From the NCBI GenBank assembly GCA_039931165.1, contig JBDTSL010000001.1, positions 66,214 to 130,213 of the forward strand: a DNA stretch of 64,000 nt, in the 5' to 3' direction. The position numbers and the translations under genes were made by a program. The notes under the pieces are model-generated. The model worked only from the letters and a program-made list of their open reading frames with translations, searched no databases and was not told the DNA's origin. Positions 37,811-63,396 of this stretch are shown one piece after another. Source of the stretch: Candidatus Doudnabacteria bacterium. Lineage in GTDB: Bacteria; Patescibacteriota; Doudnabacteria; UBA920; O2-02-FULL-48-8. Every line of letters begins with the position of its first letter. Position 1 is the first letter of the stretch.

Positions 37811-37949
37811 TTATTTTTAACAATGATACGAGAAAAGCTACCACAAACAATCCCCATACCAAAAAAATAATAAATTCCTCGGTGTTATGAAATTTAAGCT
37901 GTTCGTGTATGTGCTGATCGAGTGTTTTTCTTGTTTTGTGCTTGGCCAT
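37806..37949 (-). CDS. Possible 47-aa tail-anchored small membrane protein overlapping the gap start
   Basis: Manual translation: MAKHKTRKTLDQHIHEQLKFHNTEEFIIFLVWGLFVVAFLVSLLKING. Its stop overlaps gap codons 2-3. No SD. Below the ORF-track size cutoff. Confidence 0.25.
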
Positions 37950-48495: not shown

Positions 48496-48630
48496 TTACC
48501 CCCACACCAAAAGAGCTTTTGTTTCGGCAAAGCCGAAACAGTTGGCTCTTGAATTATCGCTGTTGGACTATATTCAATCATTTTATATTCATAATTATTT
48601 TACTAAATAAGCTCGTTATGGTGTGGGGGT
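48496..48630. repeat. MITE/Correia-like element, copy 1 (TIRs ACCCCCACACCAAA.GAGCTT / AAGCTCGTTATGGTGTGGGGGT; internal TTTCGGCAAAGCCGAAA hairpin)
   Basis: Fills exactly the spacer from htrA's stop (TTA at 48631-48633) to ruvX's start codon (CAT at 48493-48495). About 90% identical to copies 2 and 3. Confidence 0.8.
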
Positions 48631-49887
48631 TTATTTGCTCTCCCCTAAGGTCACCGTCAGATCTTTGGTTTTGCCGCCGCTGAAAACGGTCATTTTCACA
48701 ACATCTCCCGGATTAAAATCTTTCAGGTAGGAAGCCAAGCTATGGTCTTGATTTAAATCCTTCCCATTGATCTGCTGGATTATGTCATGTTCCTTAAGCC
48801 CGGCTTTATCCGCGGCCGAACCCGGTAAAACTGCCGGCGAGCTGATCAAGTCTCCCGAAACGATCAGCGCGCCATGGTCGACGCTTAAATTATTTTGCTG
48901 CTGGATGCTTTGGTTGATCATGACATACCTCACTCCAAGGAACGGCTTGACGATCCTGCCGACTTTTTGGAAGCTGCTGATATCTTTTTTGATGTCATTT
49001 ACCGGAATGGCAAATCCGATCAATTGTCCCTGGGAATCCATGGCGGTGTTAATGCCTATCACCGAACCGCCTATATCCAGAAGCGGACCGCCTGAATTGC
49101 CCGGATTGATCGCCGCGTCGGTCTGGATCACGCCTTCCAGTTGTTCGGAATCCGAACCGGTCTCACCGCCGGCCGTTATCGTCCGGCCGATGCCGGAAAC
49201 AATGCCTTTGGTGACAGTATTGCTATATTGGCCCAAGGAATTCCCGATCGCTATGACAGTCTGGCCGATCCGGAGACCGGAGGAATCACCCAAAGGTAAA
49301 GTTGGCAATTGACTGGCGCTTATTTTCACCAAAGCCAGATCATTGACCGGGTCGCGCGACAATACTGTCGCGTCATATTTCTTGCCGTCATTGGTCAGTA
49401 CTGTATAAGTGGCGGTTGTGTCTGCAACCACATGCTTGTTGGTCATGATCAGCCCATCGGAAGATACGATAAATCCGGAACCGCCTCCTATCTGCTGGAT
49501 ATTCGGCGTATTGTTTTTTTGGTTCTGCTGATTGCGGTTCTGAAAAAACGGGTCAAACGAAAAGGGGCCAAAGTCAAAAGGCGAGGTAGAATATCCGGGA
49601 ATTTTATTAAGATCTTTGGAAATTATGATCGAAACAACCGCCGGACTGGCATTCTTGACCACGTCAACAATCCCCGACTGTTCGTTCACGGAAACGGTTT
49701 TTATATCGCTGCCGATGCCGGAGCCAAATGAAACGCCATTATGCAATAAAAACGTTGAACCAAAAACAGCTCCTCCGATGCCAAAAAGAAAACTGAGCAA
49801 AACCACCAAAGTAATCAGCTTAATACTGGATTCCCCTGCTTCGGGCAAATCCGAAGTCAGAGCTTTTTCATTATTTAACTTTGTCAT
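48631..49887 (-). CDS. htrA: HtrA/DegP-family serine protease with a PDZ domain
   Basis: Catalytic triad context (TNKHV, GNSGGPL) and a C-terminal PDZ domain. Confidence 0.85.
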   Translation of the reverse strand: MTKLNNEKALTSDLPEAGESSIKLITLVVLLSFLFGIGGAVFGSTFLLHNGVSFGSGIGSDIKTVSVNEQSGIVDVVKNASPAVVSIIISKDLNKIPGYSTSPFDFGPFSFDPFFQNRNQQNQKNNTPNIQQIGGGSGFIVSSDGLIMTNKHVVADTTATYTVLTNDGKKYDATVLSRDPVNDLALVKISASQLPTLPLGDSSGLRIGQTVIAIGNSLGQYSNTVTKGIVSGIGRTITAGGETGSDSEQLEGVIQTDAAINPGNSGGPLLDIGGSVIGINTAMDSQGQLIGFAIPVNDIKKDISSFQKVGRIVKPFLGVRYVMINQSIQQQNNLSVDHGALIVSGDLISSPAVLPGSAADKAGLKEHDIIQQINGKDLNQDHSLASYLKDFNPGDVVKMTVFSGGKTKDLTVTLGESK

Positions 49888-51853: not shown

Positions 51854-51940
51854 GTCACTATTATAACCTAAAATCTTGGTTTAACAAAAAGCCGCCTTTC
51901 GGCGGCTTCTACTTTCTATTTTCTACTTGCTATTTTCTAA

Positions 51941-53239: not shown

Positions 53240-53304
53240 AAATTAGGTTATAGGTTATAGGTTATAGGTTGTAGCCGGTTGAGCTATAACCTATCACCTA
53301 AAAC

Positions 53305-54277: not shown

Positions 54278-54622
54278 TTAAAACTCCAATCCAGCGGCTC
54301 TCGCCGCTTCCGCTAATTCTTTCACACGGCCATGGTATTGATAGCCGCCTCGGTCAAATACGATTTTTTTGATGCCTAGGGCCTTAGCTTTTTCCGCGGC
54401 CAATTTACCCACAGCGGCGGCGATTTCCGATTTCTTGCCCTTGCTTTTAACTTCAGAGCTTGAAGCAGCAGCCAGGGTTTTACCGGTTTCGTCGTCGATC
54501 AGCTGGATATAAATGTGCGAAAGTGAGCGAAAAACATTCAGCCTTGGCTTGGATGAACTGCCGATGACTTTAGCGCGAACCCTTCTCTGGCGCATTTTTC
54601 GTTGTGCTTGTCTGGTATTCAT
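54278..54622 (-). CDS. rplR: 50S ribosomal protein L18
   Basis: Start chosen at [14 protein letters not shown]. Confidence 0.9.
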
Positions 54623-54761
54623 ATTTACCCCCACACCAAACGAGCTTTTCTTCCGGCAAAGCCGAAACAATTTTCCCGTGATGTGTTAATTTCTTCGTAA
54701 TCTACTAATATTCTTATAATCATAATTATTTTACTAAATAAGCTCGTTATGGTGTGGGGGT
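54623..54761. repeat. MITE/Correia-like element, copy 2
   Basis: Exactly fills the rplF stop (TTA at 54762) to the rplR start (CAT at 54620-54622). TIRs and internal hairpin as in copy 1. Confidence 0.8.
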
Positions 54762-55343: not shown

Positions 55344-55378
55344 AGTTTTTTAATCTTTAATCTAAAATCTTTAATCCT

Positions 55379-55777: not shown

Positions 55778-55917
55778 ATTTACCCCCACACCAAACGAGC
55801 TTCTGTTTCGGCAAAGCCGAAACAGTTTGCTCTTGAATTATTTTCTTCTCTGTTATATTCGATCATTCTTGTAGTCATAAATATTATTACTAAATAAGCT
55901 CGTTATGGTGTGGGGAT
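55778..55917. repeat. MITE/Correia-like element, copy 3
   Basis: Exactly fills the rpsN stop (TTA at 55918) to the rpsH ATG (CAT at 55775-55777). Confidence 0.8.
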
Positions 55918-57363: not shown

Positions 57364-57431
57364 AAGGGTGGAATATAGAATATGGAATGTGGATTATGGA
57401 TTTTTAAATCCTATATTCCAAATTCTAAATT

Positions 57432-57668
57432 CTACATTCTATTAATTACTTTCCAGCTAACTGTCTTACTATAGGGCTTTGATTCTTCGATTACAACTTT
57501 GTCGCCAACGGAGAATTCCGTATCAGCGTGAGCCGGAAATTTTTTGAAAACCTTATAGCGCTTGTGATATTTCGGGTGGACTTTTACAATTTCAACCTTA
57601 ACTACCACAGTCTTGTTCATCTTGTTGGAGGTTACGGTGCCGGTTAATTTTCTCTTGATAGTTTCCAT
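57432..57668 (-). CDS. rpsQ: 30S ribosomal protein S17
   Basis: Family similarity. Confidence 0.9.
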   Translation of the reverse strand: METIKRKLTGTVTSNKMNKTVVVKVEIVKVHPKYHKRYKVFKKFPAHADTEFSVGDKVVIEESKPYSKTVSWKVINRM

Positions 57669-60771: not shown

Positions 60772-61224
60772 TTAGACTCCTTCGCTCAATCCTGCGATCC
60801 GCTCGCCTGACTTTAATGTTACGATCGCTTTCTTCCAATCCTGGGTCCGGCCTACTGATTTTCCTTGTCGACGGTTTTTACCTGAGACATTAATCATATT
60901 GACCGCCATAACGTGCACATCATATACTGCCTCGATCGCTTTTTTTACTTCGATCTTATTAGTAGATTTGGCGACTTTGAATACATAGCGGCCTATGGCT
61001 GAAAGCTGGTTGGTTTTTTCCGACAAATGATGGCGAAGCAGGATATGGTGGGCCCGGCCGGTGTTTTCCTTAAGAATTGCTTTTTGTTCAGCAGTTTTTT
61101 CCTCAGCCGGTTCTTTGACCATATCTAAAACATTCTCTTCCTTAGGAGCTTTTTTTCCGGCGGAGCCGGATCCGGCTTTGCCGGACTTTTCATCTTTCTG
61201 TTTAAATCTGTCTAGGATTCCCAT
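60772..61224 (-). CDS. rplW: 50S ribosomal protein L23, possibly with an N-terminal ~50-aa extension
   Basis: The L23 core begins near HHILLRHHLSEKTN. The true start is uncertain; an internal Met is possible. Confidence 0.8.
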   Translation of the reverse strand: MGILDRFKQKDEKSGKAGSGSAGKKAPKEENVLDMVKEPAEEKTAEQKAILKENTGRAHHILLRHHLSEKTNQLSAIGRYVFKVAKSTNKIEVKKAIEAVYDVHVMAVNMINVSGKNRRQGKSVGRTQDWKKAIVTLKSGERIAGLSEGV

Positions 61225-61248
61225 ATTCTATATTCCAAATTCTATATT

Positions 61249-61887
61249 CTACTTTAAATATGTCTTCTCGATCACCGGCAGGGCGTCTTTCAAAATCATT
61301 GTATCGTGATTCAATAAATCCAGAACATTCAGCTGGTTGGCCGGCAAAATCTTGACATGCTTTAGGTTTCTGGCGGCGCGAACCAAATCTTGATTGTGAG
61401 TCGATAAAACCAATATATATTTCTCACCCAAACCGGCCTTGGTGGCAAGTATTGCCAGTTTGACGGCCAAATCTTTGGTTTTGGCCGTCGTATCAAAACT
61501 TTCAACGATAACCAATTTATGATTATTGACCTTGTCGGTTAAAATGCTGAATAACGCTTTTCTTACTGCCGACTTATTCATTTTAAGCGACCAATTACGG
61601 GCAGAAGTCGGACCAAATGTAATTCCTCCATGCCGCCAAAGCGGCGAGCGGACCGATCCCGCGCGGGCGCGTCCGGTGCCTTTTTGCTTCCAGGGTTTTT
61701 TGCCCGAGCCGGCAACTTCCCCTCGATTTTTCGTATGGGCGATCGAAGGACGGGCGTTGTTTCTCTGCGTCCTGACCGCGGCGTGGACGAGGCTGGCGTC
61801 GATTCTATCAATGCCAAAAATCTTCGGGTTCAGGTCAAGTTCCGTGACTATTTCGCCTGTTTGATTGTAGACTGCTGTCTTGGTCAT
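61249..61887 (-). CDS. rplD: 50S ribosomal protein L4
   Basis: Family similarity. Confidence 0.9.
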   Translation of the reverse strand: MTKTAVYNQTGEIVTELDLNPKIFGIDRIDASLVHAAVRTQRNNARPSIAHTKNRGEVAGSGKKPWKQKGTGRARAGSVRSPLWRHGGITFGPTSARNWSLKMNKSAVRKALFSILTDKVNNHKLVIVESFDTTAKTKDLAVKLAILATKAGLGEKYILVLSTHNQDLVRAARNLKHVKILPANQLNVLDLLNHDTMILKDALPVIEKTYLK

Positions 61888-61888
61888 G

Positions 61889-62491
61889 TTAGTTTAATTT
61901 GGAAACAATATCTGGGTAATCCGTAAAGATTCCATCAACACCATAATTTTTTAACCGATAGAATTCTTCAGGAGTATTAATTGTGTATACATATACTCTC
62001 CAGCCCAATTCCCTAAATTTGGACATCCGATTTTCATTGACCAATTCCGGCGTGACCGAGATGGAAAAAATATTTACCTTTTTTAAAAAACTTATTACCA
62101 ATGGAAGGAGAATTCCGTATCGGGTGGCAATCACCAGACCTAGTTGGATATTTCCGTCCAAAGCCCTGATCTTCTTTAATACTAGTGGGTTCCAAGAAGT
62201 GATCAAAACCTTGTGCGCAAATCCTTTTATTGACTCTAAAACCTCGTTTTCAAACCCGCTTTCCTTGATCTCCAAATCCAGGGGCAAGGTTGCCATATGC
62301 AGTAGTTCGTCCAAACCCGTTGAATCGGAATAATCGTTTTTGCGATCATGCGATAAAACTATTTTACCGTCGGAGGTGCGTCGCAAATCGCATTCAAGCA
62401 TTTGCGCGCCGCTATCCTGAGCTTTTTTAAAAGAACGAATCGTATTCTCCGGCTCCAACCCCGCTGCTCCCCGATGCCCGATGATCAGCAT
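61889..62491 (-). CDS. Glycerophosphodiester phosphodiesterase-family protein (GDPD) embedded in the S10 operon
   Basis: IIGHRGAAGLEPENT (HR(G) GDPD motif) and the E..D metal ligands; 200 aa. Confidence 0.7.
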   Translation of the reverse strand: MLIIGHRGAAGLEPENTIRSFKKAQDSGAQMLECDLRRTSDGKIVLSHDRKNDYSDSTGLDELLHMATLPLDLEIKESGFENEVLESIKGFAHKVLITSWNPLVLKKIRALDGNIQLGLVIATRYGILLPLVISFLKKVNIFSISVTPELVNENRMSKFRELGWRVYVYTINTPEEFYRLKNYGVDGIFTDYPDIVSKLN

Positions 62492-62641
62492 ATACCCTCA
62501 CACCAAACGAGTTTAATTGCCCTGTTTGATAACATATTCGAGATTATTTAGTTTATTAAGTTAACTGCTTTTAAATAACCAATCCCGAATCGTATTTTTT
62601 ATCTAAAAAATACAATTCGAAACTCGTTCTGGTGTAGGGGT
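62492..62641. repeat. MITE/Correia-like element, copy 4 (diverged interior; TIRs kept with compensatory changes)
   Basis: Exactly fills the rplC stop (TTA at 62642) to the GDPD start (CAT at 62489-62491). TIRs are ACCCTCACACCAAACGAGTTT / AAACTCGTTCTGGTGTAGGGGT. Confidence 0.65.
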
Positions 62642-63244: not shown

Positions 63245-63396
63245 AATTTTGGCTAAAGAAAAGCCGCTTAGATCTCGGAAAGCTTCAGAAACCTAAGCGG
63301 TTCTTCTTTCGTGATCGTCGTTGTCCTTTCGGACCTGCACAATCTTAACTATTGATTTTTTTCTATAACCTACAACCTACCACCTACAACCTGTTT

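Follow-up and report, generated by a model that had tools for sequence, protein, structure and literature searches.

The 148-nt segment that follows rplC in the analysed window, a 64-kb stretch of a Doudnabacteria contig, is a member without an ORF of a family of inverted-repeat elements that is associated with a GIY-YIG nuclease gene in the Patescibacteria (CPR). The ~305-bp form of this family consists of two arms of 21 and 22 nt and an 85-aa single-domain GIY-YIG gene, and of nothing else. The segment, copy 4 of four in the window, has the attributes of a MITE: it is short (148 nt), has no coding capacity, and shares its inverted repeats with a longer, protein-coding element. We consider it probable that copy 4 is a non-autonomous, MITE-like derivative, the stem of which serves as the cis-acting site of an SLX1/UPF0213-like nuclease.

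Copy 4 and its gene cluster

The sense orientation of an element is taken here as the strand on which the arm with the extra base comes first, which for copy 4 is the minus strand (Table 1). The ATG of the gene downstream of copy 4 (62489-62491) begins 2 nt past the 3′ arm, and the flanks make up an imperfect direct repeat, with TAAA towards rplC and TATA at the opposite end. Both arms were found where the initial annotation had placed them, and read ACCCTCACACCAAACGAGTTT and AAACTCGTTCTGGTGTAGGGGT on the plus strand; its start of the copy, 62492, lies 2 nt out in the flank. Copy 4 is not an assembly artefact, since a second, independent assembly (L092, Logan SRR26386588) matches it with 100% identity.

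Table 1. Elements of the window, parts of copy 4 and adjoining features
Feature	Position	Strand	Description
Copy 1 (Doudnabacteria subfamily)	48498..48630	-	from TAA of 418-aa ORF to ATG of 139-aa ORF; flanks TAAA...TAAA
418-aa ORF	48631-49887	-	upstream of copy 1
Copy 2	54627..54761	-	from rplF stop TAA to rplR ATG (54620-54622); flanks TAAA...TAAA; site empty in L053
Copy 3	55782..55917	-	from rpsN stop TAA to rpsH ATG; flanks TAAA...TAAA; site empty in L053
GDPD-like ORF	61889-62491	-	200 aa; named by eye from the sequence
Copy 4	62494..62641	-	148-nt element without ORF, from rplC stop codon to start of GDPD-like ORF; identical in independent assembly
Copy 4, 3′ arm	62494..62514	-	AAACTCGTTTGGTGTGAGGGT, 21 nt, sense orientation
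Copy 4, internal AT-rich hairpin	62581..62624	-	stem of ~20 pairs, 3 of them G-C; adjoins 5′ arm
Copy 4, 5′ arm	62620..62641	-	ACCCCTACACCA-G-AACGAGTTT, 22 nt, bulged G, sense orientation
rplC stop codon	62642..62644	-	TAA; directly abuts copy 4

On the minus strand, the 21 positions of the copy 4 stem comprise 19 Watson-Crick pairs, one G.U pair and one mismatch, and the stem of this copy is slightly degraded. Compared with copies 1-3, C5 stands opposite A (the mismatch), U6 stands opposite G (the wobble), the bulged base is G and not T, and one C:G pair has become U:A (T:A in DNA). The change from GAGCTT/AAGCTC to GAGTTT/AAACTC that had been described for this copy is accordingly real and amounts to one compensated pair. 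The mismatch, the wobble and the different bulge base were not part of that description. One compensated pair among four substitutions is weak evidence (p ~0.05-0.1, a rough estimate), so that the strong evidence for pairing comes from the wider family and not from copy 4 by itself. The minus strand of copy 4 folds at -44.7 kcal/mol (z -5.7), with a z of -6.1 for the plus strand.

The interior of copy 4 is unrelated to that of the other copies, as had been noted: the hairpin TTTCGGCAAAGCCGAAA occurs within the window only in copies 1-3, and a BLAST comparison with other family members found no similarity. In a scan of metagenomes with the G-bulge form of the arm, none of the four loci recovered had a related interior. 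Against Rfam, copy 4 gave chance-level miRNA matches alone (E 0.5-0.9) and the whole window gave no match at the gathering score; a search for tRNA and tmRNA genes was also negative. The AT-rich hairpin beside the 5′ arm is the sole terminator-like match inside copy 4, and a weak one. A role as promoter or terminator was considered and set aside; a search for promoter-like sites was negative.

All four copies lie among the genes of one minus-strand cluster that includes ribosomal-protein genes. On the transcribed strand, each copy directly follows the TAA of the upstream gene and leaves 2-4 nt to the ATG of the downstream one, and each has a 21-bp terminal stem with a one-base bulge (z -5.7 to -8.4, on either strand). 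A search of the window with the arm pattern gave seven matches, compared with 0.00 expected from shuffles. Fuzzy searches of the window found no copies beyond the four, and a look-alike at 37845 was rejected as an extra copy on account of its different context and the lack of a partner arm. In copies 1-3, the internal hairpin (48522-48538, 54651-54667 and 55806-55822) and its counterparts in L053 and L071/L010 show, by eye, compensatory changes. The compensated pairs of this Doudnabacteria ORF-less subfamily are GTTTCGGC/GCCGAAAC, GTTTTGGC/GCCAAAAC and GTTTTAG/CTAAAAC, which suggests a second structured module beside the 3′ arm.

Several other features of the cluster were recorded. The GDPD-like ORF, named for its resemblance to glycerophosphodiester phosphodiesterases, sits between rplC and rplD in the S10 operon; since it occupies the same place in L010 (48% identity), it is a conserved trait of the Doudnabacteria and is not carried by the element. 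For the 418-aa ORF that precedes copy 1, a homologue with 52% identity lies in Parcubacteria contig L041 (6738-7906). It too is immediately followed by an element, of the 314-nt class with an ORF, which suggests that distant lineages have used this junction repeatedly. In addition, six intergenic spacers of the minus-strand cluster (ribosomal-protein genes with secY/adk), at 51907-51939, 53244-53274, 55349-55376, 57369-57441, 61223-61251 and 63363-63392, each contain 4-5 tandem copies of a 7-nt unit that differs between spacers (for instance TAGGTTA, TTTAATC and CTACAAC) directly upstream of starts that lack a Shine-Dalgarno sequence, and the orthologous spacers of L053 also look heptad-periodic.

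An element family of the CPR and its enclosed nuclease

Scanning one genome per species with the arm pattern gave 69 loci, almost all of them in MAGs of Patescibacteria (CPR) from many classes; the family is present in about 45 such genomes, and a single MAG can hold up to 10 loci. Few of the 69 are labelled non-CPR. One of these, L022, was binned as Thermodesulfobacteriota, and its element and flanks are identical to Nealsonbacteria contig L058, so that it is probably a mis-binned CPR contig. A scan of viral contigs for phage carriers gave no matches. Our search of the literature, the coverage of which was incomplete, found no description of this CPR element, and an earlier one may exist.

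Complete elements numbered 62 at these loci and were all oriented so that the bulged arm leads. Their lengths fall at 54-74 nt, at 118-158 nt and in a tight class of 303-314 nt with 21 members. The shortest are bare hairpins, and among members of 54-160 nt the interiors are unrelated and the arms are the sole shared part, which fits the proposal of the initial annotation that the terminal stem is the functional or mobilised part. An autoregulatory RNA of ribosomal-protein genes could be ruled out, because the same arms occur at differing junctions across genomes and beside unrelated genes. An intron or self-splicing element was likewise discarded, since the shortest class (54-74 nt) amounts to no more than a hairpin and the ORF fills the 303-nt form.

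All members of the ~305-nt class (303-314 nt) enclose the 85-aa gene, the product of which matches PF01541 only (E 5e-15). A protein search gave 393 clusters, almost all of them from CPR and 85 aa in length. The catalytic-type residues Y5, Y16, R26, H30, E62 and N64 are each conserved in at least 97%. Heterozygosity of the gene at codon positions 1, 2 and 3 is 0.29, 0.20 and 0.54, and this concentration of variation at third positions indicates purifying selection on the nuclease. Since elements collected by their arms are subject to an arm-search bias, seven GIY-YIG genes were also chosen on protein similarity without regard to the arms; each of them has the arms on both sides, at a fixed geometry. 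The same 21/22-nt arms thus bracket a GIY-YIG gene at 21 arm-selected loci and at seven protein-selected genes. In the 64-kb window itself, no similarity to the GIY-YIG ORF was found; the Doudnabacteria genome nzgw380 holds an ORF-bearing copy (L006) together with ORF-less ones (L053 and L042).

The structure predicted for the nuclease (pLDDT 93.8) has as its best match among solved structures the UPF0213 protein BH0048, followed by SLX1 (TM 0.65-0.71) and HIGLE, with I-TevI and UvrC more distant; with 1zg2 there is also a sequence match (E 8e-7). The long elements contain a second stem, in which the region of the nuclease start codon pairs with the codons of the conserved KEHN motif. This stem has 12 bp (alignment columns 28-39 with 116-127) and was seen in L004, L005, L038, L041 and 15 other loci; seven of its pairs carry double changes, for example AAUUAUG/CAUAAUU to AACGAUG/CAUCGUU. 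Judging from this covariation, the start-codon stem probably serves translational control of the nuclease.

Insertion sites and constraint on the stem

The elements are placed at gene boundaries. In 47 of the 62, a long ORF that runs in either direction begins no more than a few nt from the element end, and in 36 of those 47 the start codon is a GTG composed of the terminal GT of the element and a flanking G; in L030, such a rebuilt GTG opens the expected rplX frame. In elements of the Doudnabacteria type, the downstream gene has an ATG 2-7 nt after the element end. An A stands before the TGAA left flank in all twelve copies that have one, which indicates insertion at a start codon, ATGAA. Of the 21 ORF-bearing copies, 13 end at a downstream gene of the same direction and none at an opposite-strand gene only; the other eight have the stop of a same-strand ORF within ~25 nt of the 5′ end. 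ORF-less copies occur in both orientations, 17 versus 15.

Counting four bases on each side, with the terminal A and T included, a perfect 4-nt direct repeat flanks 31 of the 62 copies, against a mean of 10 and a maximum of 21 when partners were permuted. The repeats are mostly TGAA, its complement TTCA, or TAAA, and look like a T(G/A)AA duplication. Simple duplication does not explain the TTTA...TGAA flanks of six copies, so this rule is not strict. Nine of the 69 loci lie in the ribosomal-protein cluster, on a rough estimate about 10 times its share of a 1-Mb genome.

Closest to the window, at 68-94% identity of their ribosomal proteins, are L010 and L053, two loci from Doudnabacteria that carry the same ORF-less subfamily at different junctions. 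The window is filled at rplF|rplR, rpsN|rpsH and rplC|GDPD, and L053 at rplR|rpsE, rpsH|rplF and rplX|rplE; each filled site is empty in the other genome, save rplC|GDPD, which lies outside L053. In L010 that junction is empty and reads TAGCATG, and no insertion site in the ribosomal operon is common to the window, L053 and L010. These are comparisons of diverged species, in which no clean excision or insertion footprint was seen. Lookups for a clean empty site in a close relative returned nothing with RpsN and only an identical copy of the same organism with RpsJ. A 71-nt difference between L078 and L080 was considered as an insertion of the element and turned out to be an unrelated repeat (AAGTGAAAAGTGAAAAGG..., L080 ~1945-2015), which lies just upstream of a gene start and is absent in the near-identical L078 (Falkowbacteria-type).

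Selection on the pairing of the arms, as the initial annotation had supposed, was supported across the family. Among 44 distinct arm pairs, 95.6% of cells are paired, eight of the 21 pairs have changes on both sides, and none of 500 shuffles reaches the observed values. When the register is slid, pairing falls to ~40-50%. The pair that had drawn attention in copy 4 is U:A in 22 cases, C:G in 14, G:C in one and U.G in two. T:A being the majority state, it came to copy 4 by descent from another subfamily; the double change is not this copy's own, contrary to what had been implied. On the tree of the enclosed gene, the C:G and T:A states are interspersed and intermediates occur (L011 with T/G, L051 with C/A), indicating several independent switches between the two. 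Pairs 17-32 and 19-30 are also compensated (L086, L088 and L090), and distant members swap the whole inner helix with complementarity kept (TAATG/CATTA in L078, AATT/AATT in L074).

The accompanying claim that selection acts on the stem rather than on primary sequence was not sustained. Across CPR classes, hardly any variation is seen in the outer 11-12 bp (ACCCCCACACCA / TGGTGTGGGGGT), and heterozygosity of the arms is 0.05, lower than at the second and third codon positions of the enclosed gene. The bulge is present in all copies, with a base that varies. On the alignments, the stem is doubly constrained, by sequence in its outer part and by structure in its inner part. Mispairs that would be G.U on the sense strand number 21 and those that would be A.C number 16, so that selection on RNA and selection on DNA are not separable by this measure.

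Roles of the stem and comparison with known systems

In the reading that we favour, the arms would be the cis-acting ends of the element, with the outer 11-12 bp read as sequence and the inner 9 bp and one-base bulge read as structure. The two ends would pair into a hairpin or branched DNA, the most likely substrate, and the element's own nuclease, supplied in trans, would cut the paired structure at its base, where both element/flank junctions would lie. Cutting at the base of a hairpin would explain why pairing is selected, why the outer sequence is invariant, why the bulge gives the stem a polarity and how gene-less copies spread in trans. We infer that the nuclease moves the element and that its substrate is single-stranded or cruciform DNA. 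Several points count against this reading. We know of no transposition chemistry for a hydrolytic 85-aa GIY-YIG nuclease, and a hydrolytic nuclease by itself cannot join DNA. Furthermore, only half of the copies have a perfect flanking repeat, the window lacks a GIY-YIG gene, and the interior of copy 4 is without relatives in the sample. The uncompensated mismatches of individual copies fit decay after insertion, and they weaken the claim that the host keeps the stem of each copy.

The stem may have a secondary role in mRNA, tying downstream translation to that of the upstream gene. The G-rich, Shine-Dalgarno-like 3′ arm, followed by the GTG or a nearby ATG, would be sequestered by the 5′ arm until upstream translation frees it, and such coupling would make insertions into operons tolerable. 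Placement and orientation back this role, and strand asymmetry (the G.U and A.C counts above) lends it no support. A Shine-Dalgarno role of the 3′ arm is only plausible, because about half of the genes in the window have no obvious Shine-Dalgarno sequence.

A stronger version of this proposal, which we put forward tentatively and regard as somewhat less probable than its opposite, is that the ~305-bp form is an autonomous mobile element. It would be moved by its 85-aa SLX1/UPF0213-like nuclease, which would recognise the bulged end hairpin and target T(G/A)AA at start and stop codons, rebuilding the start codon and ribosome-binding signal of the host; the four window copies would be gene-less passengers. 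Such an element would colonise even the ribosomal-protein operons of tiny CPR genomes and would, to our knowledge, be the smallest bacterial mobile element.

It is unlikely that the stem owes its maintenance mainly to an RNA function within the polycistronic mRNA of the host, as a site of translational coupling or of RNase III processing, with the DNA ends mattering less. An upstream stop codon, or the original start, would then be brought beside the downstream start, and the 3′ arm would stay hidden until a ribosome melts the 5′ arm. The window copies suit such an arrangement, being sense-oriented between co-transcribed genes with the stop codon touching the 5′ arm and the ATG 2-4 nt past the 3′ arm, which is fully paired in the predicted folds. 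So do the in-frame GTG rebuilt by the element end in 36 copies, the constant co-orientation of ORF-bearing copies with host genes, and the covarying stem over the start codon of ORF-bearing members, which is most naturally translational control. However, G.U is not in excess over A.C on the sense strand, mismatches are tolerated in individual inserted copies, the covariation lies between subfamilies and not within one site, and many window genes have no Shine-Dalgarno sequence. An RNA function also leaves unexplained the invariance of the outer 12 bp in either orientation and the association of the arms with a nuclease gene.

It seems improbable that a conventional transposase encoded elsewhere moves a MITE of which the arms are just the terminal inverted repeats, the GIY-YIG gene being a passenger or a secondary invader of the loop. 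The MITE-like size, the inverted ends, the short repeats at the flanks and the variety of interiors agree with this reading, as does the fact that we know of no transposition activity for such small GIY-YIG proteins. It is opposed by the fixed geometry of the arms around all seven protein-selected genes, by the tightness of the ORF-bearing class, which leaves no room for anything else, by the finding of no transposase gene beside any locus in the gene tables examined, and by the covariation of the inner helix, which a transposase binding duplex DNA does not require. Least credible of all is that nothing is selected and that the compensated pair of copy 4 reflects coincidence or descent from another master copy, since the single compensated pair beside a mismatch and a wobble in copy 4, and its inheritance of the majority T:A state, are outweighed by the double changes at eight pairs that no shuffle matched, the independent C:G/T:A switches, and the compensated or wholly replaced yet complementary inner pairs of L086, L088, L090 and the distant members.

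If the nuclease does move these elements, a GIY-YIG-based class would be added to the bacterial transposable elements, with a new lower size limit of ~305 bp; we know of no such class among the standard insertion-sequence families. The very large group of 85-aa proteins annotated in CPR as 'GIY-YIG nuclease family' would gain a role, and the Ssn/NTS idea discussed below would extend to a different repeat architecture. The placement at start and stop codons, the rebuilt GTG and the coupling stem would show how a selfish element can live in the essential operons of minimal genomes, and a small nuclease with a short target of sequence plus structure could serve as a tool. For annotation, the copies account for unusually long spacers, for GTG starts and for spurious small ORFs in CPR genomes.

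Among known systems, a free-standing GIY-YIG homing endonuclease of the I-TevI or Seg type, in which a DNA-binding domain is attached to the nuclease domain, was rejected, the CPR protein having 85 aa, no extra domain and only a distant fold match to I-TevI; homing into one cognate site was rejected as well, as copies occupy many unrelated sites. Correia elements of Neisseria and RUP of Streptococcus pneumoniae are bacterial MITEs with a TA duplication that derive from or depend on DDE-type insertion sequences. The CPR elements resemble them in being short and non-coding, with inverted ends that form a long RNA stem, in having many copies and in being co-transcribed with their neighbours. They differ in their T(G/A)AA flanks, in a GIY-YIG nuclease as partner and in insertion on start and stop codons, and a DDE-type partner beside the loci was sought in the gene tables examined with no result.

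REP/RAYT and IS200/IS605 share with the CPR elements an enzyme gene flanked by its own repeats, recognition of DNA hairpins (here putative) and a specific tetranucleotide by the ends. The RAYT and IS200/IS605 enzymes are HUH tyrosine transposases with covalent intermediates, and act on local subterminal hairpins, whereas the CPR stem is formed by the two ends and its GIY-YIG enzyme would be hydrolytic. SLX1, UPF0213 (YhbQ-type) and HIGLE proteins are the best fold and sequence matches of the enclosed protein. Both SLX1 and HIGLE are structure-selective and cleave branched DNA, in keeping with a stem-based substrate for the CPR nuclease. In contrast to it, the proteins of this group are cellular repair enzymes or uncharacterised and are not known to be bracketed by inverted repeats, and SLX1 requires SLX4 and has an extra RING domain.

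Of the published systems, Ssn with its NTS/SRM repeats appears to come closest: the gene for a small single-domain GIY-YIG nuclease has its own hairpin repeat on either side (Chenal et al. 2025, Nat Commun, PMC11893778). The target of Ssn nucleases is single-stranded DNA, which they cut next to a DNA hairpin to which they bind; the SRM repeats are self-contained hairpins of 20-50 nt with the consensus HGTCWY...RNCYNB, and the authors point out the IS-like layout and the parallel with REP/RAYT (PMC11893778). That paper does not mention CPR and reports neither a flanking duplication nor placement at start codons (PMC11893778). In the CPR elements, the arms pair with each other and the gene lies in the loop, whereas each SRM is a local hairpin; inspection of the arm ACCCCCACACCA(T)AACGAGYTT showed no self-complementarity, no GTC-type lead and no fit to the SRM consensus. 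The nearest solved relatives of the CPR protein are UPF0213 and SLX1. The two systems nevertheless have in common a single-domain GIY-YIG protein of ~85-94 aa, a gene bracketed by its own repeat, and the presence of that repeat in many gene-less copies outside coding sequence.
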